Shown piece after piece: positions 51,966-64,000 of a stretch of 64,000 bases of DNA. The notes under the pieces are model-generated. The model was not told the DNA's origin. It did no database searches and worked only from the letters and a program-made list of their open reading frames with translations. The stretch lies in the NCBI GenBank assembly GCA_045598345.1, contig JAZLLX010000093.1, positions 54,166 through 118,165 of the forward strand. The letters are read 5' to 3'. Within the stretch, counting starts at the first letter, position 1; every line of letters begins with the position of its first letter. Made by a program: the position numbers and the translations under genes. Source of the stretch: Acidaminococcaceae bacterium. GTDB taxonomy: Bacteria; Bacillota; Negativicutes; Acidaminococcales; Acidaminococcaceae.

Positions 51966-53572
51966 TTTTGTCCTCCCTTCGGATTAAAGCCATGGTCTTT
52001 CATACATCTGTCTATGACCCTGCACACCTTTTCCGGTGTGATATTCCTTGTACACTCAAACTGCCGTTCCGTGTTTTTATGCCTTGGGCACCATTCCCCG
52101 TCCGAGTGGTTGAATGTGACCCTTGTATCGTCCCAACATCCGTTGCATGTGTGGTAACATATTACCCTGTAGGGGTTTGTGAACTCATTTATGGGAAGGG
52201 TGAATCCGCTTATCAGGATTACCGGCTTTCCCACCCCCCAGGCCAGCCAGCTGAGCCCGCTGGACAGCCCGATGAAGAAATCCGCATGGTAGATTAGGTC
52301 TATCCTTTCCTGCAAAGGCCGGTCCCCCGTAAAGTCCTCACATCCGAAGGGTATGCTGTTCATGTATGACCCCACCTGGTGATTGTCTTCCTTGTCTATG
52401 CACAGCACCCTGTAACCTTTCAACTTAAGGTACTTGACCACATTGATCCAGCCCCTGGAATTGTTCCAATGCTTTGCCTGGCTGGAGCCGTTGGCGGCGA
52501 TGCAGACGTAGGGGTCTTTAATCGTCCGCTCCGCCAGTTCCTTGGCGCTGGGCAAAAGCCGTGGGGGATGTTCCTCCCATTCGTCAAGCCCCAGGATTAG
52601 CGCCGCATTCCTGTGCAGGCCCATCACCCGGAAATCCACCGGCTGGTGTTCCCTGTCATCGCAGGGGAAGAACACCCCCATGGTGTAAGTTGCGTATATG
52701 TCTTCCGGCAGGCCGGGCGGATATTCCCCTGCCTTTTCCTGATCTTCCGTCCGTGCAATAAAATGCAGTTTGGGATAGCCCGGTTCCAGAATTTCTTTCA
52801 TAGTTTGGCTGATGAGGATATAAACCTCGCACCCGTGTTTTTTCCTGAATTCCTCCGCATAGGGGAACCACGCCAGGGTATCCCCGACAACCACTCCCGC
52901 CGCATACTTGATAAGCACATTTCGTTTTTCGCAGTCATAGTCGTGGGAAAAAACTATTTTGCCGTCCTGGTACAGTTCAAAACGCAGACGCAGGTAGTAT
53001 TTTTTACTTGTGCAAAATACACCCTCTCCGACTTCCCCTGAAAAAATAGTGAGGCAGTCGTCCAGGTCCACCACGTTAAGCCAGTACTTCGCGCCTTTGG
53101 GAATCTGTACCCTGAGCCCGTCATTAAAATCAAATTTCACCCCCGGCAAGGGAGTGCTGTGAACAACTTTTTTGGCATCAATAACCACTTTGGAAGGTTC
53201 TTCACCGTGTTGTACGCCTTCCGTCCCCTGTACAACAACACTGGGGGTATATTCCGCCGCCACAGAACCTCCTGCAGGCATTTTATGCGGATCTGTAACT
53301 ACTGTGGTAACCATATTGTTGGCGCCGGTCACTGTGGTTGTGGTAATAGGTGCCAGCACCCCGGGGGATACGGTGTTGGAGTTCAGCGGCTGAATATTGG
53401 ATACCGCAAGAGGAAGATCCATATCTGTGGCCGGAATCCCCACAAAAACAGTTCCTGAAGGAACATCCGCAGGCGTCCCGTTATTTTGCGGGTTGGAAAC
53501 ATTCTGTTCCGGTGCGGAGCCGCTTGTCTTTTTTTCGTCTATATTCTTTTGCGAATTGTTTTTTGTTGTCAT
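51962..53572 (-). CDS. Autotransporter strand-loop-strand O-heptosyltransferase (BAHT family, TibC/Aah-like), with an extra ~110-130-aa N-terminal low-complexity extension
   Basis: The 536-aa ORF starts at ATG 53572 behind AAGGGGGAAGAG and 1 nt after the upstream stop. Its TGA overlaps the giant gene ATG. From about residue 135 it shows blocks I recognise from TibC/Aah: FDFNDGLRV, SKKYYLRLRF, GDTLAWFPYAEEF, QPVDFRVMGLHRNAALILG, PYVCIAANGSSQAKHWNN, GYRVLCIDKE, EDFTGDRPLQERIDLIYHADFFIGLSSGLSWLAW, PVILISGF and CNGCWDD...WCPRHKNTERQFECTR (the Cys cluster of the iron-binding finger). Confidence 0.85.
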   Translation of the reverse strand: MTTKNNSQKNIDEKKTSGSAPEQNVSNPQNNGTPADVPSGTVFVGIPATDMDLPLAVSNIQPLNSNTVSPGVLAPITTTTVTGANNMVTTVVTDPHKMPAGGSVAAEYTPSVVVQGTEGVQHGEEPSKVVIDAKKVVHSTPLPGVKFDFNDGLRVQIPKGAKYWLNVVDLDDCLTIFSGEVGEGVFCTSKKYYLRLRFELYQDGKIVFSHDYDCEKRNVLIKYAAGVVVGDTLAWFPYAEEFRKKHGCEVYILISQTMKEILEPGYPKLHFIARTEDQEKAGEYPPGLPEDIYATYTMGVFFPCDDREHQPVDFRVMGLHRNAALILGLDEWEEHPPRLLPSAKELAERTIKDPYVCIAANGSSQAKHWNNSRGWINVVKYLKLKGYRVLCIDKEDNHQVGSYMNSIPFGCEDFTGDRPLQERIDLIYHADFFIGLSSGLSWLAWGVGKPVILISGFTLPINEFTNPYRVICYHTCNGCWDDTRVTFNHSDGEWCPRHKNTERQFECTRNITPEKVCRVIDRCMKDHGFNPKGGQK

Positions 53573-53573
53573 T

Positions 53574-54158
53574 TCACTCTTCCCCCTTTCCGAATCTTTC
53601 CAGCAGAATCTCTTTGAACCTGTCTGCAGGAACTATGAATTCCGTCCTGCCCCTGACCACCCTGGCAATCAGGTAACCCTTGTTGTATTCCCAGTTTAGT
53701 TTGCTGGTCTGGAGCACACCGTTCTGTATATATTTTTTTATCCGTTCCTGATTTGTAAAAATCCTTTCGTTGCTCACCAGGGAGGCCAGCGCCGGCTTGT
53801 CAACCAGCGGTGTATAAACGCTGTAGCGGTTCTGGCTGAAGTATTCCTCCAGGGCCTCCATCATCCGCTTGTCCTCACCGTAAAGCACCTTGAGGTACTC
53901 CCACATAATCATGCCGAACTGTTCCTCATTCCCCCGGTCAACATTGAACACGAAGAAAGCCAGTTTGGTGGCAAAATTCATAATCTGGAACGACCTCACC
54001 CCACGGAAGTCAAAGCCCTTGATGCCCCACGCCGTGAGAGGGTCCCATTTTTTTATTTTGAGCAACTGCATGGCAGGCACCCTGTCGCCCTCCGGCAGTT
54101 TGTCCGCCATGGTAATTGCAAATTTGTCCGCTAACCCTTGTGTAATGTGAAAAATCAT
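53574..54158 (-). CDS. Hypothetical protein (194 aa from ATG 54158; the track's 203-aa version starts at GTG 54185), first gene of the giant-protein operon
   Basis: The ORF is open with non-repetitive, normal composition (MIFHITQGLADKFAITMADKLPEGDRV...). Its stop is 1 nt before the BAHT ATG. GTG 54185 would lie ~12 nt from the predicted transcription start with no SD, so ATG 54158 is preferred (weak AAAGAG upstream). I cannot place the family with confidence. Confidence 0.6.
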   Translation of the reverse strand: MIFHITQGLADKFAITMADKLPEGDRVPAMQLLKIKKWDPLTAWGIKGFDFRGVRSFQIMNFATKLAFFVFNVDRGNEEQFGMIMWEYLKVLYGEDKRMMEALEEYFSQNRYSVYTPLVDKPALASLVSNERIFTNQERIKKYIQNGVLQTSKLNWEYNKGYLIARVVRGRTEFIVPADRFKEILLERFGKGEE

Positions 54159-54204
54159 TTGTCCGACTCTTTTCTGGGCACGCACGCCCGCAAAATATAT
54201 TTAT

Positions 54205-54232
54205 ATTATAAGAGGAAATGCAAATTTTGCAA
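54205..54232 (-). promoter_or_regulatory. Sigma-70/SigA-type promoter for the small ORF-BAHT-giant gene operon
   Basis: On the minus strand: TTGCAA (54232-54227), 16 nt, TATAAT (54210-54205). An A11 tract (54250-54240) just upstream of -35 resembles an UP element. The -10 sits ~45 nt upstream of ATG 54158. Confidence 0.6.
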
Positions 54233-54466
54233 GCACTAATTTTTTTTTTTGCTTTTTATGAAATTTCGTTCATAAAATGTTTTGCCACCGATTTTTTTTA
54301 TTACACTTTCACATTTTTCCAGATTTTTGCGGATGTTTTTGTAAAATTTATGTTTTTTGCAGAAAAAACTTTTTTTTCGCAAAAAACTTGTAATTTTTGT
54401 TCCAAAATTTTCGTTCAAAAGCCCATGTATACATTGCTGACGGGTTAATTTTGCACTTAATTTTTC

Positions 54467-54495
54467 TTGAAAAATCTTCCCCGCCGTGCTATAAT
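54467..54495 (+). promoter_or_regulatory. Sigma-70/SigA-type promoter (extended -10) for the GT8 gene pair
   Basis: TTGAAA (54467-54472), 17 nt, TGcTATAAT (54487-54495). GGAGGA lies at 54509-54514 and the ATG at 54520. Confidence 0.65.
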
Positions 54496-54519
54496 TTTTT
54501 TGCAACCGGAGGATGAACA

Positions 54520-55374
54520 ATGAAAAAAATTCCTATTGTTTTCACTTTCAACGAGATGTATGCTTTGGGCGGAAGTGTTGCCATTATGTCCCTTCTGGAC
54601 AACAGGAATGTTGGCACGGAATATGAGATTTTCATCTTTTATGATTATTTTGAGGATGAAACTGTGGCAAAACTCAAATCCCTGTCCCCCATTCATTTTG
54701 TCAAGGTGCCAAACGATTTGTTTGAGGGCTTTACGCATACACCCCGTTTCCCGCTCATCGGTGGGTACAATATGCTTATCCCGGACCTTCTCAAGGATTA
54801 TGAACGGGTTATCTTTTCCGATGCGGATGTGCTGATACTCAAGGATCTCAGCCACCTTATGGATTTGGATTTGGATGATTATTATTGGGCAGGGGTATCC
54901 ATCAGCAAAAAAGACAATTTTTTCTGTCAAAAATATCCGGTTTTGGCTCAATATTGTCAGGACAATTATTATTCCAACGGGTTTATGGTTGTCAACGAAA
55001 AGAAGATACGGGAAAACAATATCGGGCTGGAACAGTTCAGGGCGGTTGCAAAAAAATACGGCAAATTGCTGTATTTTGTTGACCAGGATATTTGGAACAT
55101 TGTCTGCAACAAGGTCTATCGTCTTCCCCCCGGATATTTGTTCCCCGACTTTATTTACCGGGGAAGAAAATCCGATGTGGTTTGGCATTGTGATGCCTAT
55201 GATATGAATATTGACAAACATTTTGAGGATATTTTCGTGGTTCATTGCTGTACGGAAAATTTGGACAAAATATGGACATTGCCCGAAGACGAAATCTATC
55301 CTGAATATCTGCATTACATGATAAAATCACCCCTTTACCAACCTTACGAAAACAGAAAGGAGGTATTGCAATGA
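54520..55374 (+). CDS. Glycosyltransferase family 8 (retaining; LPS-core glucosyl/galactosyltransferase-like)
   Basis: 284 aa with a strong RBS. The N-terminus IPIVFTFNEMYALGGSVAIMSLLDN is typical of GT8. DxD motif FSDADVL. The distal HxxxxxxK-W-like block FVVHCCTENLDKIW is present. Confidence 0.75.
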   Translation: MKKIPIVFTFNEMYALGGSVAIMSLLDNRNVGTEYEIFIFYDYFEDETVAKLKSLSPIHFVKVPNDLFEGFTHTPRFPLIGGYNMLIPDLLKDYERVIFSDADVLILKDLSHLMDLDLDDYYWAGVSISKKDNFFCQKYPVLAQYCQDNYYSNGFMVVNEKKIRENNIGLEQFRAVAKKYGKLLYFVDQDIWNIVCNKVYRLPPGYLFPDFIYRGRKSDVVWHCDAYDMNIDKHFEDIFVVHCCTENLDKIWTLPEDEIYPEYLHYMIKSPLYQPYENRKEVLQ

Positions 55375-56207
55375 ACAAGATTCCCCTTGTGCTTCTGTTC
55401 AATGAAAATTACGCCCTTGCGGCCAGTGTGGCCCTCATGTCCCTTTTGGATACTAAGGCGCCGGACACAGAGTACGAGATTTTTGTACTTTATGAGAATA
55501 TGTCGGACGATGCCATGCAGAAACTGAACGCCATTTTCCCCGTCAACTGGATCAAAATTGATTACAACCCTTTCAGCGGCATGCTGACCACCGACCGTTT
55601 CCCCTCAATCTGCTGTTCCCGCCTGCTGTTCCCTATGCTTTTTCCTGACTACGACAAAATACTTTACAGTGATGTTGATGTGCTGTTCAAAAAGGATTTG
55701 TGGAAGGTTTTTAATACGGATATCAGCGATTATTATTGGGGCGGTGTTGCCCAAGGGGCCAATACCCCGAAAACCAAACATGACCATCCTCCGTGCTATG
55801 AGATGGGGGACACAATATTCATAGACGGTTTTATGGTCGTTAATCTCAAAAAAATGCGGGAAGAGGATTTTTTCAGCAAATGTATGGACATTGCTTCCCG
55901 TTGGAGCGCTTTGCTGACATCCGTGGAAATGGATGTGCTGAACATGGCCTGCAAAAATCAGATTTGCAAATTGGACTACATTTATCAGGTCCCCGGTATG
56001 GTTTATCACACAGATACTGCCGGCCCTATGTACTGGCAAAACGACTGCTACGAAATTCCTTCTTCAAAACCGCAACTGCAGCAAAATACTGCAGTCATTC
56101 ATTATGCCGACAATTCAGACCCTGTGAAGGTCTGGCTGTTGCCGGAAAATGAGATTCCGGAGGAATATATGAGGTATATGCGCCAATCCCCTTTTTACCG
56201 GAAATAA
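55371..56207 (+). CDS. Glycosyltransferase family 8, tandem paralogue
   Basis: 278 aa. AGGAGG lies 7 nt upstream, and there is an ATGA overlap with the preceding gene. IPLVLLFNENYALAASVALMSLLDT; DxD motif YSDVDVLF; AVIHYADNSDPVKVW. Collinear with 54520..55374 throughout. Confidence 0.75.
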   Translation: MNKIPLVLLFNENYALAASVALMSLLDTKAPDTEYEIFVLYENMSDDAMQKLNAIFPVNWIKIDYNPFSGMLTTDRFPSICCSRLLFPMLFPDYDKILYSDVDVLFKKDLWKVFNTDISDYYWGGVAQGANTPKTKHDHPPCYEMGDTIFIDGFMVVNLKKMREEDFFSKCMDIASRWSALLTSVEMDVLNMACKNQICKLDYIYQVPGMVYHTDTAGPMYWQNDCYEIPSSKPQLQQNTAVIHYADNSDPVKVWLLPENEIPEEYMRYMRQSPFYRK

Positions 56208-56246
56208 AAAAACCGGCTTCGGGCAAACCCGAAGCCGTTTTTTTTA
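56205..56246. terminator. Bidirectional Rho-independent terminator between the convergent GT8 pair and the minus-strand tailoring operon
   Basis: A8 (56205-56212), stem CGGCTTCGGG (56214-56223), loop CAAA, stem CCCGAAGCCG (56228-56237), T8 (56238-56245). The 10-bp stem is perfect and GC-rich, with a U-run on both strands. Confidence 0.85.
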
Positions 56247-56250
56247 TTGT

Positions 56251-57492
56251 TCAGTCAAAACATTTCCAAATTGTTTCAATAATTTTCTGCTGTTCGTCTT
56301 CCGTCATTTTGTTGTCGCTCGGCAAGCACAAACCTCTTGCAAATATACCTGAATCTGTACTGTTATTATTGCCGTTGTCCACCCCTGTCCCAAGGGTCAC
56401 GAAAGGATTGCCGGAATATACGGGCTGCAAATGCATGGGTTTCCAAATCGGCCTTCCTTCTGCCCTGATTTTTGCCAGGACTTCCAAGATTTCTGTGGGG
56501 CAGGATTTTCCGTGTTCGGGAATGTAACCTGCTTTGTCCGCACTGCGTTCCTGCCGGCACATGGCAGTTTCGTCTATCAACAGGCCGCTGAGCCAGAAAT
56601 TTGGGCTGCTGTTTTTTTCATCATAGGGGTTCATGCTGACGGGCAGCCCTTTGAACCCTGCTTTATATCTTTCGTAGATTGCCCGCTTTTGTGCAATGTG
56701 TTCCTGCAAATGCGGCAACTGGCCACGCACTATTCCTGCATCAATATTGGAAATGCGGTAATTATATCCTAATTCCTTGTGCTGGTACCAGTGGGCCGCT
56801 TCCCGTGACTGGGTTGACCATTTGCGGGCAAGCCGCACCGCTTCCGCATCCGCCGACACCAACATTCCGCCGGTTGATCCTGTGATAATTTTATTGCCGT
56901 TGAAACTGAAAGCATTGTACCGTCCGAATGTTCCTGTTTGCCTGCCTTTATATGTTGCGCCCAGGGATTCTGCCGCATCCTCAATGAGGACGGCGTTATG
57001 CTTTTCACATACCGCCAATATTTCATCCATTTTGGCAGGTGTGCCGTAAAGATGTACCAATACCACCACCTTGATATCCGGGTAAAGCGTAAAGGCCTTT
57101 TCCAATGCCGCAGGGTCCATATTCCAAGTGTCCCGTTCCGCATCAACGAAAACTTGTGTCCCGCCTTCGTAACTTACGGGATTAACTGTGGCCGCAAAAG
57201 TGAAATCGCTGCACGCCACCTTTGTTCCCGGTTTCACGCCCGCCAGTTTCATGCAAAAATGCAGGGATGCCGTACAGCAGGACAGGGCGGTGGCGCAAAC
57301 CGGTTCGGAAAGGGAATTTTTGGGGGCAAGAAATTCTGCCATCTCTTTTTCAATGACGCTTATGTTCTCGCCCACAATTGATACCCAGTTTGTGTTATAG
57401 GCATCCATCATATATGTGATTTCCTCCCCGTGCATGGTCGGGGTCGCCAGCCATACCGGTTTTGCCAAAGGCACTGTTTTCCCTGTGAACAT
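56251..57492 (-). CDS. DegT/DnrJ/EryC1/StrS-family PLP-dependent sugar aminotransferase
   Basis: 413 aa. ATG follows GAGGAGG by 6 nt. Family-typical blocks: ...ATPTMHGEEITYMMDAYNTNWVS..., VLIEDAAESLGATYKGRQTG, and the Schiff-base lysine context FSFNGNKIITGSTGGMLV. Confidence 0.8.
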   Translation of the reverse strand: MFTGKTVPLAKPVWLATPTMHGEEITYMMDAYNTNWVSIVGENISVIEKEMAEFLAPKNSLSEPVCATALSCCTASLHFCMKLAGVKPGTKVACSDFTFAATVNPVSYEGGTQVFVDAERDTWNMDPAALEKAFTLYPDIKVVVLVHLYGTPAKMDEILAVCEKHNAVLIEDAAESLGATYKGRQTGTFGRYNAFSFNGNKIITGSTGGMLVSADAEAVRLARKWSTQSREAAHWYQHKELGYNYRISNIDAGIVRGQLPHLQEHIAQKRAIYERYKAGFKGLPVSMNPYDEKNSSPNFWLSGLLIDETAMCRQERSADKAGYIPEHGKSCPTEILEVLAKIRAEGRPIWKPMHLQPVYSGNPFVTLGTGVDNGNNNSTDSGIFARGLCLPSDNKMTEDEQQKIIETIWKCFD

Positions 57493-57523
57493 TGACTGCC
57501 TCCTCAGTTATGCCGCAATATTT

Positions 57524-58651
57524 TCAGCTGCAACGCTGTACTATTTCAATTACTTTTGCCACATCAGCATCCGTCAGCCACAAATGTGTTGGCAAGGTTA
57601 TCAGACGGGTGCTGATATTGTGGGCGTTGGGACATGTTCCGTGGGCATAGGCGTATATGCCGTATTCTGTGTTGTCACGGTAATGCACGCTTGCAAAGAT
57701 TCCGTTTTTCCCCAATTCGTCCATTATTTTATTTCTGTCCGCAACTGCCAAAGCATAAATGTGACAGGAACATTCTTCAAAATTGTTGACGGGTATAATC
57801 TTAAGTTTCGGATTGTTTTGAAATGCCGCATTATACATGGCAAATATCTCCCGCCGGCGGGCATTGTCCCCGTCCAGATATTTTAACTGCACAAGGGCAA
57901 TGGCCGCCATTACGGAATTGCCGTTGTATTTGTAACCGAGGTAATTTACGTCATACTGCCAGGAATATGTCCCCAGATTACGGCGGGCATAAGTGTCCTT
58001 ATCCAATCCGAACCACGCCATCTGCCTTGTGAGTTCATCGCCTTCTGCATCCGCCCAGCAAATCATGCCGCTGTCGCCGGTGGGCAGGTTTTTTGCCGGG
58101 TGAAAGGAATACACTGCCACATCAATCCCTTCCCAGGTGCCGGGGGACACCCCCTCCACCCTTGTGCCAGCCATGTGGGCGGCATCCAAAATAAGTTTGA
58201 GTTTATATTTTTTGCAGAGGGCAATAATCTCTTTGAGCCGCCCCGTCCTGCCCCCGTATCCAACAAAAATCACTGCCCTGGTTTTGGCAGTGATTTTTTT
58301 TTCCACATCCTCCGGGTCAAGGCAAAGGTACTCGTCCACATCCGCAAATACGGGATGCAGGTTTTCATACATAATGGCGTGGTTGGTCACTACAAAGGTG
58401 ATGGGGGTGGAAATGATTTCGTCCCCCTCCTGCCAGCCGTTCTGCATTTTCAAAATTTTCACCGCCAGATGCAGTCCTGCGGAATTGGAACAGAGATAAT
58501 AGGCATGGGTATGGCCTGTGTATTTTTTCCACGCTTCTTCAAACTGAATTGTTTTATAACCAACGCCGGGCCAGCCGCAGTCCAGACATTCCCTTATTTC
58601 TTCCAAACATTCTTCTGTATGAAATTTTGGTTTCAGAACTTGTATGGCCAT
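57524..58651 (-). CDS. DegT/DnrJ/EryC1/StrS-family PLP-dependent sugar aminotransferase, second and divergent copy
   Basis: Preferred start is ATG 58651 (MAIQVLKPKF...) behind AGGGGGA. The track's start at 58693 would overlap the upstream gene. Blocks: LCSNSAGLHLAV, GDEIISTPITFVVTNHAI, ILDAAHMAGT, and the lysine context YSFHPAKNLPTGDSGMI. Confidence 0.75.
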   Translation of the reverse strand: MAIQVLKPKFHTEECLEEIRECLDCGWPGVGYKTIQFEEAWKKYTGHTHAYYLCSNSAGLHLAVKILKMQNGWQEGDEIISTPITFVVTNHAIMYENLHPVFADVDEYLCLDPEDVEKKITAKTRAVIFVGYGGRTGRLKEIIALCKKYKLKLILDAAHMAGTRVEGVSPGTWEGIDVAVYSFHPAKNLPTGDSGMICWADAEGDELTRQMAWFGLDKDTYARRNLGTYSWQYDVNYLGYKYNGNSVMAAIALVQLKYLDGDNARRREIFAMYNAAFQNNPKLKIIPVNNFEECSCHIYALAVADRNKIMDELGKNGIFASVHYRDNTEYGIYAYAHGTCPNAHNISTRLITLPTHLWLTDADVAKVIEIVQRCS

Positions 58652-58661
58652 TTGTTTCCCC

Positions 58662-59552
58662 CTAAATTTGTTTGAGTTGGAACTCCTGCACAATCAGCCG
58701 GCTTAAATATGCCAGCAGTTCCTGTCTTCCGGGCACATTTTCCGGCTCTTTTATTTTTTCCTCTTCCAGTTCTTTTAACTGCTCTTCATATTCCTCCAAA
58801 AGAAATTGTTTGTAGTCCAAGCCATATTTTTTTGCATAGTAAATGTTGTCATCCACATTGATTCTTTCACCTTCCGAGGGCCACACCATGCTTTGACCAC
58901 GCTTATGCACCATTCTGATGTCCGGATGAAACCGGATGGTATAATCAGGTGCCAAAGCATGTATTTTCCTTGCCAAATCCGCTTCCTCATTGCAAAAAAA
59001 TATGTTTTCGTCAAAGCCGCCTATCAAATCAAAAACTGTCCTTCTCAAAAAAACATCGCAACCTTCCAAAAACATTGTACGCTCGTCAAACAGGTCATAC
59101 TGCAACGCCAGCCACATAAAATTACGCCGGCAGCAATGACGGTATTCAAACCGGTAGCCGTAAGAACAGCCGTTGCTGCCGTCCTGTTCAAGCATTCTGC
59201 CGCCCAGCCAGCCCAAACGGGGGTCTGCATTAAATTTGTCAACTATCTTTTTGAATACCGGCTCAACCAAGACAATATCATGATTCATAAAGGCAAGTAT
59301 CTCACCATGGGCAAGGGATGCGCCCAAATTACATCCTGCACCGTATCCCGCCCTGTTGTCCTGACTGACATAGATACATTCACCGCTGCCGTGGGTACGC
59401 AATGTTTCCAAAGCATTGTTTTCCTGCGGATTATGGTCAACAATAACAATTTCCAGTTCTTCCCCTATGTCATTGTATTGTTTTACGGAATCAAGAAAAT
59501 CCGCCAGGCATTTGTTGTTGTTGTAAGCCAATGTCACAATGGATATTTTCAC
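58662..59552 (-). CDS. Glycosyltransferase family 2
   Basis: ISIVTLAYNNNKCLADFLDSVKQ...ELEIVIVDHNPQEN...GAGCNLGASLAHGEILAFMNHD matches the GT2 fold signature. Likely start is GTG 59552 (AGGGGA 6 nt upstream, 1 nt after the upstream TGA). The track's ATG 59570 is an alternative. Confidence 0.7.
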   Translation of the reverse strand: MKISIVTLAYNNNKCLADFLDSVKQYNDIGEELEIVIVDHNPQENNALETLRTHGSGECIYVSQDNRAGYGAGCNLGASLAHGEILAFMNHDIVLVEPVFKKIVDKFNADPRLGWLGGRMLEQDGSNGCSYGYRFEYRHCCRRNFMWLALQYDLFDERTMFLEGCDVFLRRTVFDLIGGFDENIFFCNEEADLARKIHALAPDYTIRFHPDIRMVHKRGQSMVWPSEGERINVDDNIYYAKKYGLDYKQFLLEEYEEQLKELEEEKIKEPENVPGRQELLAYLSRLIVQEFQLKQI

Positions 59553-59553
59553 T

Positions 59554-60504
59554 TCAGTTCCCCTGTCCATTTATCTTTCTATAATCCGGCTTTTGGTCAT
59601 CCGTTTTTTTGCCGGCCGCTACCAATTTGTATTCTTTGAAAATCAGTTTGTTCAAATATGCCACCAATTCCTGCCGCTCCCGTACATTTTCGGGACGGTT
59701 TGTTTTTTCTTCTTCCAATCTTTCCGACTCGTCTTTGTATTCCTGCAAAAGATAGGGTTTGTAGTCAAACCCGTATTTTTTGCAGTAATAGAGAAGGTCA
59801 TCCAATGCGATTCTGTCCCCCCTGGGCGCCGGCAAATCGCTCCGCCCCCCCAAGTGTATCATGCGGATATCAGGATGGAACTCAACGGTATAACCTGCCG
59901 CAAAAGTATGGATTTTATTCACTATATCCGCTTCCTCATTACAAAAAAGGTAGTTTTCATCATATCCGCCTATCAAATCAAAAACTTTTCTTCTCATGAA
60001 AGTGGCGCAACCCATCAGAAACATTGTCCTTTCATCAAAAAGATTATATTTCAGCGACTGGCCGGCAAATGAAGGGCGGTATAGGGTGTGATATTCAAAC
60101 CGGTAAGCGTAGGAACAACTGGGGGTTCCGTCCTCCTCCAATATTTTGCCCCCAAGCCAGCCCAAGTTGGGGTTGTTGCTGAATTTTTCAACCGCTTTCC
60201 CGAACACCGGTTCAATCAAAAGCATATCCTGGTTCATAAAGGCAAGTATTTCACCCCGTGCCAAAGATGCGCCTAAGTTATAGCCGCCGCACAGCCCTGC
60301 CCCGTTGTCCTGCGTAACATAAATACATTTGCCTGTTGCGGGATGATTACGCAATGTTTCCAAGGCACTTTTTTCCGGCGGATTATGGTCAACAACAATA
60401 ATTTCCAATTCATCGCCTATGTCGTTGAATTTTTTTATGGAATCAAGGAAATCAGCCAGACATTTGTTGTTATTGTACGCCAATGTTATAACTGAAATTT
60501 TCAC
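59554..60504 (-). CDS. Glycosyltransferase family 2, tandem paralogue
   Basis: 316 aa. GTG start overlaps the rSAM stop (GTGA). KISVITLAYNNNKCLADFLDSIKKFNDIGDELEIIVVDHNPPEK is nearly identical in its N-terminal block to 58662..59552. Both share a charged C-terminal tail (EEYxxxxxxLEEEK..PENV..RQEL.AYL). Confidence 0.7.
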   Translation of the reverse strand: MKISVITLAYNNNKCLADFLDSIKKFNDIGDELEIIVVDHNPPEKSALETLRNHPATGKCIYVTQDNGAGLCGGYNLGASLARGEILAFMNQDMLLIEPVFGKAVEKFSNNPNLGWLGGKILEEDGTPSCSYAYRFEYHTLYRPSFAGQSLKYNLFDERTMFLMGCATFMRRKVFDLIGGYDENYLFCNEEADIVNKIHTFAAGYTVEFHPDIRMIHLGGRSDLPAPRGDRIALDDLLYYCKKYGFDYKPYLLQEYKDESERLEEEKTNRPENVRERQELVAYLNKLIFKEYKLVAAGKKTDDQKPDYRKINGQGN

Positions 60505-61484
60505 TTTGATTGGGCGGCCTGCCGTTCCAACATTTTTTCTTTAACATAATTTTTGGCAATGCACAACGCAAAACATGTTGACGGGCCAAACTTCTTACAG
60601 TTTTTATAGTCACAGGCCATTTCATGTGTGTCCCAATATGCATCCCATTGCCTGTGAAGTTCTTCATGAATATCTTCCCCTTTTTTGTAAATCCTGAAGT
60701 CAGGAATCTTGATGAGGGAATAACTGGAGGAACACCAGATAACCGAACCGTCCGGCATAAAATCCAACGGAGGATTGTTGCAATGTGTTGTGCTAAACTC
60801 TATTTTGTTTCTCATTTGCCTGATAAATTCCGGATGCAGTTCGCAGGCGTTGATCGTGCAGTCAAAACCGATTTCAATATCTGGTTTGACTTTGAAAACT
60901 GTTTCGCAGAATGACAGCATATCATCCGTGTAGTCATAAAAATCAAAAACATTATTGTGTGTTGGGGTTGCAGGGGCAACCCTGATGTGCAAATGTTCTT
61001 CGGATGCGTAATGGTCAATAACTTTTGCAATCCGGTCCGCTTTTACCTGATTCATTTCAGAATCCGGCACAAGAGTTGTGGCAAGGGAAACCCCTGCGTC
61101 AGAGTAGTTGACTATATAGTCAAGGTTTTTGTAAAAAAGCCCTTCCTGGGATTCCGTAAAATCAGTATTTACCAGCCATCCCCTTACGCAACCATATTCA
61201 TTTGCCACTTTACGCAGAAACGGATGCGGTGCAATAAGGTTGCTGAAGAAACATACCCTTCTGTCTTTTTTTTCACAAATGTCTAAAACTTCATACAGGT
61301 GGCTGTACAATAGTGGTTCTCCGCCCATTATGTTAAAATCACCGTTATCCATCAATTCCAATATCTGTGTGAACATGCTGACCGGCATTTCCACTATACC
61401 CCGTCCGTCGCCTTCCAAAAACCATTCCCGCTGAAAGCAGTATTCACATCTTCTGGAACATCTGTTGGTTACCGAAATATTCAT
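60501..61484 (-). CDS. Radical SAM enzyme with C-terminal SPASM-like auxiliary-cluster domain
   Basis: Preferred start is ATG 61484 (GGAGG 7 nt upstream). The track's GTG 61490 is 1 nt from the SD. CxxxCxxC sits at the extreme N-terminus (NRCSRRCEYC), with GGEPLL (IMGGEPLLY). C-terminal HCNNPPLDFMPDGSVIWC fits Cx10Gx4C, followed by CDYKNCKKFGPSTCFALC (Cx4Cx7Cx3C). Confidence 0.8.
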   Translation of the reverse strand: MNISVTNRCSRRCEYCFQREWFLEGDGRGIVEMPVSMFTQILELMDNGDFNIMGGEPLLYSHLYEVLDICEKKDRRVCFFSNLIAPHPFLRKVANEYGCVRGWLVNTDFTESQEGLFYKNLDYIVNYSDAGVSLATTLVPDSEMNQVKADRIAKVIDHYASEEHLHIRVAPATPTHNNVFDFYDYTDDMLSFCETVFKVKPDIEIGFDCTINACELHPEFIRQMRNKIEFSTTHCNNPPLDFMPDGSVIWCSSSYSLIKIPDFRIYKKGEDIHEELHRQWDAYWDTHEMACDYKNCKKFGPSTCFALCIAKNYVKEKMLERQAAQSK

Positions 61485-61486
61485 TT

Positions 61487-62392
61487 TCACACCTCCATTA
61501 AATGCAGATATCCGCCGCTGCTAAAAAAACTTTGAATGTCAGATTCCTGATATTCCATAAAATTTGCTACATCTGACCTGTGATATCCTGTCACCAAATA
61601 GTACTGATATGCCATATATGTCTGCATTTTGTCCACCCGTCCCACAATTTTAAACCGGTTGATACCAAGTTCATGGTACATTTCCCAGTTACTGGCACGC
61701 ACATTATGCTGCCTTCTCCCCGGCTTAAGATACTCGTCTTTGTAAAAACAATTATTTTCCGTAGTCCCATACAAAACACCTTCACTGATATTACGCTCAT
61801 GTTCTTTGCGTTTCGGGCAGTGGGAATGGCAGGTTTCATTTAAGAGAATTTCCAGGTTTTCACGGTGGGTAAATTGTTTCAGCAATCCGTAATTGTTGTT
61901 GAATTCATAAGGAAGCACAACAATCCTGTCCTCAGACAACCTGTTAATGACTTCTATGGTTTCTTTTATTGTAGGGGCAAAATCCGTAGTTGTGCTCCAG
62001 GAAACCGGCAAAGAGGGATATTTCTTCTGAATATATTCTGCCATTATTTCACTGGCAACCATAACACATCCGCCCATTTCCTCAAGCAAGGCGGCCATTG
62101 CATTGCCCGTATAATCGTCCAAATGTTTTTTCTCCAGCAGAAGATTGGTAAAAGTCACTCTGTATTTAATCTTGAAGCACTTGTAAAGCAAAACTATGTT
62201 TTTGAAGTTTTCCAATGTCGCCCGTTCAGCGGTAATCCTGCCGCCATTCCAAATACACCGGCAGGGACAACCATACGCAAAGCCAATTTCAAAATCGTTG
62301 TAAAACCATTGCGGTTCCTTCATTCTGATATAAAGCAAAGAATTCGTCAAATCCCTGACACTTTCAGAATCCGGAATTGAATATATATACAT
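61487..62392 (-). CDS. Cys-motif protein of unknown family, paralogue B
   Basis: Preferred start is ATG 62392 (AAGGAGG 8 nt upstream). This gives MYIYSIPDSES..., collinear with the paralogue A N-terminus MLRFAIPDSYD. The track's TTG 62431 is unsupported. Shared motifs: AYGCPxxCIWNG, IKYRxTFTN, VxWSTTTD, IVVLP, NExCxxxCPxRxEH, RxKIxGR. Confidence 0.6.
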   Translation of the reverse strand: MYIYSIPDSESVRDLTNSLLYIRMKEPQWFYNDFEIGFAYGCPCRCIWNGGRITAERATLENFKNIVLLYKCFKIKYRVTFTNLLLEKKHLDDYTGNAMAALLEEMGGCVMVASEIMAEYIQKKYPSLPVSWSTTTDFAPTIKETIEVINRLSEDRIVVLPYEFNNNYGLLKQFTHRENLEILLNETCHSHCPKRKEHERNISEGVLYGTTENNCFYKDEYLKPGRRQHNVRASNWEMYHELGINRFKIVGRVDKMQTYMAYQYYLVTGYHRSDVANFMEYQESDIQSFFSSGGYLHLMEV

Positions 62393-62436
62393 ACCATCTG
62401 CCTCCTTGTCTTCCTGAATTAATGCGAACAAAAATT

Positions 62437-63339
62437 TTAGTCAGTGTCACGGACAATCTGGGTTGTCCCGCTAAGCTGGCTTTTTAACAACTTGTCCATA
62501 TAATCTAAAAACTGCATCCTGAAAGTGGGTAACACAAAATATTCCAAATAAGCGGTAATTGTGTTTTCCTTGTCCAAACGCCCTTCTATCTTGTACCTTG
62601 TAATGCCCCTCTTGGAAAAAAGGGGGATTTCTGCCCTGCTGATACGGTGTTTGGGTATATATGCCGGGTCGTACTTAATGTTCCGCATCTTACATTCGGG
62701 CATTGTGGCGGTTTCCATAATGTTAAAGAGATTGTTCCTTTTGTAGTGTTCCATCCTGTGAGGGCAGTCGTCAACACACCTTTCATTGACTAAAACCTCT
62801 ATGTTTTCCGGGTGAATCAGCCGGTCCACTTCGGGATGGCTGTTCATATCCCTGGGCAGAACCACAATCGTATTCCGTGAAAGTTCGTTGATTTTTTCCA
62901 CACATTCGTCAGGGGTTTTGCCATAGTCAGTGGTTGTGCTCCAGCAAACTTTCAGATTGGGATATTTTTTCATGTAGTCCGCCATCAGGGGAATGCTAAC
63001 CATCACATAGCCGCCGTACTTGTCCAACACTTCCGCAATTCTGTTGCCGTAGGTGTCATAAAGATGTTCCCGCCGCAAAAGAAAATTTGTAAATGTCAGG
63101 CGGTACTTAATTCCGTGGCGGGCATACAACTCCACCACGCCCTTTCCCCAATCATAGGGTTCAGCAATAATTCCAAATTCTGACCGGCTGCCGTTCCATA
63201 TGCAGGAAGGGGGGCAGCCATAAGCCATTTCTATCTGAAAATCATCATAAAACCATTCCTTTTTTTCCTGCATAATCTGCAAAAGGACGGCATTGATTGG
63301 CCCTGTATCGTATGAATCGGGAATAGCAAAACGTAACAT
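62437..63339 (-). CDS. Cys-motif protein of unknown family, paralogue A
   Basis: 300 aa. ATG follows AAAGGAG by 8 nt. The motif set is the same as 61487..62392. I do not recognise the family. The alternating beta-strand-like hydrophobic blocks suggest an alpha/beta barrel. Confidence 0.6.
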   Translation of the reverse strand: MLRFAIPDSYDTGPINAVLLQIMQEKKEWFYDDFQIEMAYGCPPSCIWNGSRSEFGIIAEPYDWGKGVVELYARHGIKYRLTFTNFLLRREHLYDTYGNRIAEVLDKYGGYVMVSIPLMADYMKKYPNLKVCWSTTTDYGKTPDECVEKINELSRNTIVVLPRDMNSHPEVDRLIHPENIEVLVNERCVDDCPHRMEHYKRNNLFNIMETATMPECKMRNIKYDPAYIPKHRISRAEIPLFSKRGITRYKIEGRLDKENTITAYLEYFVLPTFRMQFLDYMDKLLKSQLSGTTQIVRDTD

Positions 63340-63363
63340 TATGTTTCTCCTTTCAGGTTACAC

Positions 63364-64000
63364 CTATTTTCCGGGTCTGAAAATCATGTCCGTTCCGTAA
63401 AGTTCATCCAATCTGTGCAGGACTTCATTTTCTATCCAAGGGAAATAATCCATGTTGAGGTAGCCGCTAAAACGTGACCGGCAAATATCAACCGCTGCAG
63501 GTACAAACTTTTGTTTCCCCAACCAATTGAAGAATTTATCCACCCTTGCTTTCAATTCCTCCATAGGTAATGGTTCATCCTTTTCTCTGAATATTGATTC
63601 ATTCTCAAATTCAAGATAATAGCGGCCATTTCTTTCCAAAGGTATTGCGTGTATTGATGGCGCTATCCTGAAAGCATTGTATGTGTTCCGTTTTATTTGC
63701 CACCAGGCATCCGGCGTAATTTCCACTACTTTTTTTTCTCCGTCTTTCAAAGTGTCGCTCCAGCAGAAATAATCCAAATCTATATCCAATACCACCGGTG
63801 CCGCAAACTCCCCGTAATCAGTAAGCCCGCCCCTGTAAAAATCAAACGGTCTGATGTTGGAAACAATGTCTTCCTTAGTTTGTTCTTCAAGTTTTTTTCT
63901 TACTTCCTCATCTTTGTCGTCCACATAGTCCAAAATATCCCTTCTGTTCCCGCCTATATCCGTGAACACATGCCCTATAAATTTTTTTTTGAATTCATAG
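63364..64000 (-). CDS. Hypothetical protein, 5'-truncated by the window edge (possibly UPF0489-like)
   Basis: The frame stays open upstream of the track's GTG 63969 to the window end (...YEFKKKFIGHVFTDIGG...), so the true start lies beyond 64000. Contains VVLDIDLDYFCW. The family suggestion is weak and from memory only. Confidence 0.5.
   Translation of the reverse strand, partial: YEFKKKFIGHVFTDIGGNRRDILDYVDDKDEEVRKKLEEQTKEDIVSNIRPFDFYRGGLTDYGEFAAPVVLDIDLDYFCWSDTLKDGEKKVVEITPDAWWQIKRNTYNAFRIAPSIHAIPLERNGRYYLEFENESIFREKDEPLPMEELKARVDKFFNWLGKQKFVPAAVDICRSRFSGYLNMDYFPWIENEVLHRLDELYGTDMIFRPGK

Follow-up and report, generated by a model that had tools for sequence, protein, structure and literature searches.

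Two tandem GT8 glycosyltransferases beside a BAHT-type heptosyltransferase and a giant autotransporter: candidates for the extension of a protein-linked heptose

A stretch of 64,000 nucleotides from contig C93 (JAZLLX010000093.1) of an Acidaminococcaceae genome, referred to as the window, contains two tandem genes of glycosyltransferase family 8, here named GT8a and GT8b. They are located beside a gene for a TibC/Aah-type autotransporter O-heptosyltransferase (BAHT) and the gene of a giant autotransporter. The host is a Phascolarctobacterium-like gut metagenome-assembled genome (MAG) of 1.97 Mb, as judged from the names in its 90% GyrB cluster. The sequence data are best explained by GT8a and GT8b being soluble, cytoplasmic, retaining (alpha-linking) hexosyltransferases, which descend from GT8 enzymes of the lipopolysaccharide (LPS)-core type and were recruited into a glycosylation island. 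The pair probably serves the glycosylation of the giant adhesin. That it does so by elongating the serine-linked heptose on this protein is a more tentative prediction, given slightly less than an even chance.

The GT8 gene pair

The two genes and their signals were located as follows.

54520..55374, plus strand: GT8a, 284 aa, predicted soluble retaining-type GT-A glycosyltransferase with a DAD motif and a D-Q-D like residues 188-190 of LgtC
55371..56207, plus strand: GT8b, 278 aa, paralogue of GT8a; the ATGA overlap indicates translational coupling
54467..54495, plus strand: promoter-like site of the GT8 pair, TTGAAA-17-TGcTATAAT, agreeing with 11 of 12 consensus positions and with an extended -10 element
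54509-54514, plus strand: Shine-Dalgarno sequence GGAGGA of the GT8 pair, downstream of the promoter-like site
56214..56237, both strands: intrinsic terminator usable in both directions, located between GT8b and the aminotransferase gene that converges on it, with T-runs on each strand and a 10-bp stem in which 8 pairs are GC

A preliminary description of this DNA had placed two GT8 enzymes next to a heptosyltransferase. This was confirmed, as both open reading frames (ORFs) lie at the positions given above, the adjoining gene encodes a BAHT, and both products exceed the cut-off (24.3 bits) of the Glyco_transf_8 profile PF01501 with 83.6 bits for GT8a and 107.7 bits for GT8b. The two proteins are 37% identical over their whole length (E = 2e-58), and each gene is preceded by a Shine-Dalgarno site. 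Across the alignment of the subfamily, the residues D101 and D103 (DxD), H244, and K253-x-W255 are invariant. The promoter-like site in front of GT8a, recognized by its match to the consensus, is conserved at two DUF6933-BAHT loci of other lineages, L105 and L006. Two further loci of this kind are referred to as L118 and L120, and the DxD, His, and K-x-W motifs are also present in the GT8 of L120. Comparison with the orthologues gave ratios of nonsynonymous to synonymous substitution rates (dN/dS) of 0.09-0.20 for GT8a and 0.06-0.10 for GT8b, at a synonymous divergence ranging from 0.8 to saturated.

Matches of GT8a in the PDB are 3tzt, WbbM, and LgtC, and the sequence of GT8b matches LgtC with E = 3e-13. 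The AlphaFold2 model of GT8b (pLDDT 89.7) was compared with known structures using Foldseek and was found to resemble the GT8 domains of WbbM and LgtC (TM-score 0.76, E about 1e-18). The match to GlyE is weaker than that to LgtC (TM-score 0.63, E = 2e-13), and UGGT, XXYLT1, and glycogenin are also among the matches. The C-terminal 40 amino acids carry a net charge of -4 in GT8a and -1 in GT8b. Judged from the sequences and the structural model, these are two genuine and functional GT8 genes, which form one small operon.

A minus-strand ORF of 285 aa (54457-55314), which overlaps GT8a, is without support and was regarded as spurious. Furthermore, a recent foreign insertion of the pair was considered and found no support, the GC content being 40.5% and 45.4% for the two genes versus 43.2% for the genome.

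The DUF6933-BAHT-giant operon

Upstream of GT8a, a three-gene operon for a DUF6933-like protein, the BAHT, and the giant autotransporter is encoded on the minus strand, with the giant gene running out of the window.

54205..54232, minus strand: promoter-like site of the DUF6933-BAHT-giant operon, TTGCAA-16-TATAAT, conserved in L105
53574..54185, minus strand: first gene of the operon, DUF6933-like protein of 194-203 aa (PF22016 with 20.9 bits, below the cut-off)
51962..53572, minus strand: BAHT (TibC/Aah-type autotransporter O-heptosyltransferase), 536 aa, TIGR04414 with 496 bits (cut-off 200), with further matches to PF21129 and PF01075
3..51965, minus strand: N-terminal 17,321 codons of the giant autotransporter, whose ORF continues outside the window in the genome
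49926..50837, minus strand: AIDA-like repeat patch with units of ~19 residues, about residues 377-680 of the giant, the presumed BAHT acceptor

The spacer between GT8a and the DUF6933 gene is AT-rich, has a length of 334 bp, and carries near-consensus promoter-like sites on both strands, so that the pair can indeed be described as divergently promoted from the BAHT-giant operon, as had been proposed. The BAHT gene overlaps the start of the giant gene, which is a single uninterrupted ORF coding for 32,743 aa (C93:7899-106130). The C-terminus of its product is formed by an autotransporter beta-domain (PF03797, 103 bits), which follows a (PVD)n linker. If it is made as one protein, it would rank with the largest proteins of bacteria and greatly exceed every type Va autotransporter known. 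In the N-terminal 1,200 aa no Pfam or NCBIfam match was obtained, and the repeat patch was recognized by its periodicity: the autocorrelation peaks at lag 19 (0.20 versus a background of about 0.09), and TQxV-anchored units follow each other at a spacing of 18-19 residues.

The genes of the orthologues of the DUF6933-like protein (59-95% identity) are followed by a BAHT gene in every case. In the same family, 11 plain BAHT loci were examined with flanks of 10 kb; neither DUF6933 nor any other island gene was found there, and the neighbouring ORFs measure only 580-2,340 aa. DUF6933 is a marker of giant-type BAHT loci. Its AlphaFold2 model is of moderate confidence (pLDDT 66.5), and a Foldseek search against the PDB returned chance-level matches only (best E = 0.09), namely retroviral integrase fragments with a TM-score of about 0.3. 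Between the window (53574-54519) and L105 (530-1473), the DUF6933 protein is 94-95% identical and the intergenic control region 84.5% at the nucleotide level, against protein identities of 66% for BAHT, 62% for GT8a, and 69% for GT8b at the same two loci. This could reflect a recombination mosaic or an unusually strong constraint acting on the first gene and its control region.

Elsewhere in the genome, the region C72:8371-18492 contains a second, orphan BAHT of 432 aa, which is 41% identical to that of the island, and downstream of it five paralogues in tandem, each of about 290-310 aa. No large autotransporter gene adjoins this BAHT. That it has a GT8 or island genes of its own was considered and found no support, since no GT8 is present there and the tandem paralogues are unrelated to the uncharacterized proteins of the island.

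Recurrence of the GT8 genes at giant-type BAHT loci

Orthologues of the GT8 pair are rare. Among 5.8 billion proteins, they were found in two further lineages, L006 (85% identity for GT8a and 73% for GT8b) and L105 (62 and 69%), and a scan of JGI metagenomes with the alignment of the orthologues gave no match. In L006, the genes for the giant, BAHT, DUF6933, and UPF0489 are followed by GT8a, GT8b, and a FemAB-like gene, and then by aminotransferase, GT2, and radical SAM genes. In L105, the order is BAHT and DUF6933, GT8a and GT8b, and an FdtA-like gene with DegT and GT2 genes. The core of BAHT-DUF6933 facing GT8a-GT8b is thus constant in the window, L006, and L105, and the tailoring genes flanking it vary.

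A search with DUF6933 led to the locus L120. Here a single GT8, which lacks the C-terminal tail discussed below and is 32-34% identical to GT8a and GT8b, is encoded upstream on the same strand as the DUF6933-BAHT-giant genes, the giant gene coding for more than 11,780 aa. Altogether, a GT8 of this clade is present in two arrangements at four of the five DUF6933-BAHT-giant loci with visible upstream DNA. Three further DUF6933-BAHT loci were left out of this count, as their upstream side is cut off.

The neighbourhood of these loci offers some additional observations. In L120 (550-3945), the GT8 is followed by genes for an Acetyltransf_3 protein, a 70-aa ORF, a KAS III-like protein, and a ketoreductase, which take the place of the aminotransferase/GT2 operon and suggest an acylation of the glycan or of the protein. 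The FemAB/Acetyltransf_6-like gene after GT8b is confined to L006 (9187-10131, plus strand), and its product may transfer an aminoacyl group onto an amino sugar. The stretch upstream of the DUF6933-BAHT-giant genes in L118 contains extra BAHTs, radical SAM genes, and paralogues of the uncharacterized island proteins, and these extra BAHTs and paralogue arrays directly adjoin the DUF6933-BAHT-giant genes.

Origin of the GT8 enzymes

Relatives of GT8a and GT8b were collected by a scan of the GTDB species representatives, which returned 61 proteins with 20-37% identity, 59 of them with 28-37%. They belong mostly to gut Alphaproteobacteria and Gastranaerophilales, with some from Francisella and Lentisphaerota. 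None of these 61 relatives from other phyla has a BAHT gene within 10 kb. In maximum-likelihood trees, calculated with a quick search setting, all seven GT8s linked to a BAHT are grouped in a single clade (SH-aLRT 94), in which the six a and b copies are united with a support of 98. GT8a and GT8b are sister subclades with identical internal topology, which indicates that the lineages diverged with both copies already in place and have retained them. The remaining GT8s known from this bacterial family were checked as possible orthologues and rejected, since their identity is 21-30% and the tree places them outside the clade.

The BAHT-linked clade is nested among GT8s of other phyla with an LPS-core context, and WaaJ and WaaO of Escherichia coli lie far outside. 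Among three gene contexts that were read, two are LPS-core clusters. In F. persica, genes for a GT4 and an unknown protein of 363 aa precede the GT8 gene, and genes for a Gly_transf_sug protein and a Wzy_C ligase follow it. In a Gastranaerophilaceae MAG the order is Wzy_C, PfkB, a GT9 heptosyltransferase, an unknown protein of 367 aa, GT8, and GT2. The third context, L101, is a different sugar-tailoring cluster. Of the relation to LPS-core hexosyltransferases drawn in the preliminary description, the GT8 identity and the LPS-core context of the nearest relatives outside the clade stand. GT8a and GT8b are, however, not enzymes of the WaaI/WaaJ/LgtC type, as seen from the tree, from the scores with the equivalog model NF011718 (45.2 and 26.8 bits, the cut-off being 461), and from the absence of the membrane tail.

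This tail separates the BAHT-linked enzymes from their relatives. The C-terminal tail of LgtC and WaaJ mediates membrane association, which is needed for lipid-linked acceptors. Intact stand-alone relatives end in a basic aromatic tail with a net charge of +6 to +14 in the last 40 residues (WaaJ/WaaO: +8), and the BAHT-linked GT8s are about 20 residues shorter, with a C-terminal net charge of -4 to +1. Furthermore, a gene for a protein of about 365 aa without a Pfam family is located directly upstream of the GT8 gene at 52 of 62 loci of the relatives (collected as L039-L100). This partner is absent at the BAHT-linked GT8s and has no homologue in the genome studied here. The loss of tail and partner, as read from the sequences, fits a switch to a soluble acceptor.

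The partner-GT8 arrangement was seen in gut Alphaproteobacteria, Gastranaerophilales, Francisella, and Lentisphaerota (e.g., L100:6905-8894 and L099:6917-8894). The tail-bearing GT8 and its partner of ~365 aa thus appear to form a widespread two-gene LPS-core module, which is apparently undescribed. By position, the Francisella genes would correspond to waaY-waaZ, the orthology of the F. persica GT8 gene to waaZ of F. tularensis being deduced from the gene order only. Mutants of waaY and waaZ in Francisella have truncated LPS cores (PMC4419852).

LPS biosynthesis in the host genome

Given this ancestry, the two enzymes might be ordinary hexosyltransferases of the LPS outer core or of lipooligosaccharide, with their position next to the adhesin genes due to chance or to shared descent of the island. 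The genome itself lends this some weight. Homologues of GmhA, HldE, HldD, and GmhB, sharing 39-50% identity with their E. coli counterparts, are encoded at C5:8.9-12.4 kb in an operon which also holds two LPS-type GT9s. WaaA is encoded on C48, and a WaaL-like ligase together with GT4, GT2, and LicD genes on C135. By these homologies the genome makes heptose-containing LPS, and GT8a and GT8b are its only GT8s. In addition, outer cores vary between strains, so that a patchy distribution would be expected, and the closest non-orthologous relatives are found in LPS-core clusters, as described above.

Nevertheless, an LPS function is judged quite unlikely. The LPS loci on C5, C48, and C135 are on other contigs, far from the island, and the basic membrane tail and the WaaY-like partner are both missing. 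Within the GTDB family of the host (140 genomes), BAHT was found in 19 genomes and HldE in 128, and the GT8 pair is missing from all but one, which places it outside the core LPS pathway of the family. Finally, DUF6933-BAHT remains linked to the pair even where other genes of the island have been exchanged, and the linkage recurs in a second arrangement in L120.

Proposed role in the glycosylation of the giant adhesin

The favoured explanation, an elongation of the protein-linked heptose, would involve the following steps. ADP-heptose would be supplied by the GmhA-HldE-HldD-GmhB operon on C5. In the cytoplasm and before export, BAHT would attach heptose to serines of the N-terminal patch of 19-residue repeats. 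GT8a and GT8b may then each transfer an alpha-linked hexose from a UDP-sugar donor onto this heptose or onto the chain as it grows, presumably with specificities which differ after their old duplication. Further extension or decoration of the chain may be the task of the GT2s and amino-sugar enzymes encoded nearby. The explanation is supported by the recurrent linkage to DUF6933-BAHT-giant, the single origin of the BAHT-linked clade, the loss of tail and partner gene, the separation from the LPS loci, and the distribution of the pair among the genomes of the family. In this scheme, the acceptor (the heptose on the giant), the donor sugars, the order of the steps, and the co-expression of the pair with the giant operon are inferred. 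The complete version, a multi-sugar O-glycan built in the cytoplasm on the serines of the giant from a BAHT heptose, alpha-hexoses added by the GT8s, and an unusual amino sugar added by the GT2s, is regarded as doubtful.

Single steps of this kind have precedents. TibC and Aah heptosylate serines in the cytoplasm (PMC4358343), and the GT8 enzyme GlyE lengthens, likewise in the cytoplasm, the O-glycan carried by the PsrP adhesin, as summarized from Jiang 2017 in a later article (PMC12656782). In Actinobacillus pleuropneumoniae, an N-linked glucose set by an N-glycosyltransferase (NGT) is extended by an adjacent alpha-6-glucosyltransferase (PMC5303269).

Several points weigh against an elongation of the heptose. 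The described products of BAHT enzymes are single heptoses on serines (PMC4358343). The pair forms a transcription unit separate from the giant operon and on the opposite strand. At the DUF6933-BAHT-giant locus L118, no GT8 was found within the 9.9 kb of visible upstream DNA; a GT8 is thus not obligatory at such loci. The window, L006, and L105 represent related lineages and not independent acquisitions, and the GT8 of L120, which stands for the second arrangement, is on a long branch and less surely placed in the clade. Moreover, the core on which the Francisella relatives act is not known to contain heptose, so that descent from LPS-core GT8s alone does not predict a heptose acceptor. We are not aware of a report of a further transferase in any BAHT system, and a literature search for papers linking GT8 with BAHT found none.

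The same linkage to the BAHT locus would also be expected if the GT8s act on the giant without using the heptose, either by priming other serine, threonine, or tyrosine residues directly, as the GT8 enzyme glycogenin does on itself, or by extending a glycan started by the GT2s. Of the 32,743 residues of the giant, only about 300 belong to the BAHT repeat patch, the structural matches include the protein-directed GT8-fold enzymes glycogenin, XXYLT1, and UGGT, and the island encodes four further transferase or tailoring functions. On the other hand, we know of no bacterial GT8 that primes protein, the nearest relatives of the pair are glycan-extending LPS enzymes, and the GT8 of L120 occurs with BAHT and without a GT2 in the visible part of the locus. 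A glycosylation of the adhesin which bypasses the heptose is considered unlikely.

The convergent operon

The preliminary description had overlooked that the GT8 pair belongs to a larger soluble island, which also comprises DUF6933, two DegT aminotransferases, two GT2s, a radical SAM protein, two uncharacterized proteins, and UPF0489. Most of these are encoded in an operon which converges on the GT8 pair from the right and is conserved in L006 and, in part, in L105.

56251..63999, minus strand: eight-gene operon for soluble proteins, with UPF0489, two uncharacterized paralogues, radical SAM, two GT2s, and two DegT aminotransferases (Pfam and NCBIfam matches)

No transmembrane-like segment was found in the island proteins (maximum 19-residue hydropathy < 1.5), and the Pfam and NCBIfam profiles revealed no flippase, polymerase, ligase, priming phosphoglycosyltransferase, or Kdo/heptose LPS transferase in the island.

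As the pair abuts this operon and shares the bidirectional terminator with it, and the operon enzymes are all soluble, the GT8s could work together with the aminotransferases, GT2s, and radical SAM protein in a pathway which is directed at a soluble glycoside or at some other acceptor and has no connection with the giant. The content of the operon speaks against this. The first aminotransferase gene is replaced by an FdtA-like gene in L105, a FemAB-like gene has been gained in L006, the GT2 genes number one or two, and L120 has genes of acyl-carrier type instead, whereas the adjacency of GT8, DUF6933, and BAHT is constant throughout. Furthermore, all instances of the GT8 pair or its clade were found at giant-autotransporter loci. 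A function apart from the giant is accordingly rated as highly improbable.

The aminotransferase encoded next to the terminator (56251-57492, minus strand) is LegC-like and has a paralogue with 69% identity at C135:37289-38533, about 7 kb past the LPS outer-core and ligase cluster. The two uncharacterized paralogues of 300-314 aa (61487-63339, minus strand) show a weak similarity to Peptidase_U32 below the threshold. Further paralogues of them are encoded at C99:6906-7799 and C116:7976-8827 of the genome, and four to five copies are located beside radical SAM genes in L118. Together with the radical SAM protein and UPF0489, they may form a protein- or sugar-modifying module that is independent of the GT8s.

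Implications

The reading given in the preliminary description is partly supported. The locus is interpreted as a BAHT-autotransporter glycosylation system to which a soluble island of several enzymes, among them recruited GT8s lacking the tail, has been added. So far, BAHT glycosylation is known only in the form of single serine heptoses, from two-gene systems of Proteobacteria. If the proposed elongation is true, the product would be the first complex protein glycan primed by heptose, with an LPS-core-like structure on a protein, and heptose would be shown to be able to prime a complex protein O-glycan. It would also mean that LPS-core enzymes were retargeted from lipid to protein by loss of the tail and the partner and subsequent duplication. 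For glycoengineering, soluble cytoplasmic building blocks would become available alongside the NGT/alpha-6-glucosyltransferase and serine-rich repeat protein (SRRP) enzymes. Finally, the locus bears on how giant adhesins are presented to the host by the abundant gut Acidaminococcaceae, and an LPS-core-like glycan on a protein might be recognized by lectins or antibodies which read LPS.

Comparison with known systems

The closest enzymes by sequence are the LPS-core GT8s with a WaaY-like partner. They share 28-37% identity, the DxD, His, and K-x-W motifs, an N-terminal 'KIPxVFxFxE' block, and the same radiation in the tree with the GT8 pair, but have a basic tail of about 20 aa and mostly the partner gene, and none is located near a BAHT. 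LgtC of Neisseria and WaaJ/WaaO of E. coli have the GT8 fold and the DxD motif in common with the pair and are retaining by family, but are far apart from it in the tree.

The Aah-AIDA-I and TibC-TibA systems of E. coli (PMC4358343) resemble the locus in the TibC-family gene directly upstream of and overlapping the autotransporter gene, in repeats of about 19 residues, in the C-terminal beta-barrel, and in the presence of the ADP-heptose pathway in the genome. In contrast, the E. coli systems consist of two genes and set single heptoses on serines. Here, DUF6933, two GT8s, two GT2s, aminotransferases, and a radical SAM protein are added, and the substrate has 32,743 aa.

A cytoplasmic protein glycosyltransferase for autotransporter adhesins with an adjacent extending transferase is also found in the ngt-agt system of A. 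pleuropneumoniae (PMC5303269). This system differs in the N-linked glucose on asparagine, in the use of a GT41 enzyme, and in the location of both genes in the same operon.

Finally, the SRRP systems of Gram-positive cocci, such as PsrP of Streptococcus pneumoniae with GlyE (PDB 5gvv), combine soluble GT8 and GT2 enzymes and several paralogous transferases with a very large repetitive adhesin. The sequence similarity of the pair to GlyE is marginal (E = 0.0085). A cytoplasmic extension of a serine-linked sugar set by a separate priming transferase takes place in the SRRP systems and is proposed here. There, GlcNAc is primed by the GT4 pair GtfA/B, followed by Gtf3 and then GT8 and GT2 enzymes, and the adhesin is exported by the accessory Sec system. 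No GtfA/B-like GT4 was found in the window, where BAHT is the only priming-type enzyme of the locus and the substrate is an autotransporter. The locus described here would thus combine priming with heptose by a GT9-type BAHT and export by the type Va autotransporter route in a diderm Firmicute.

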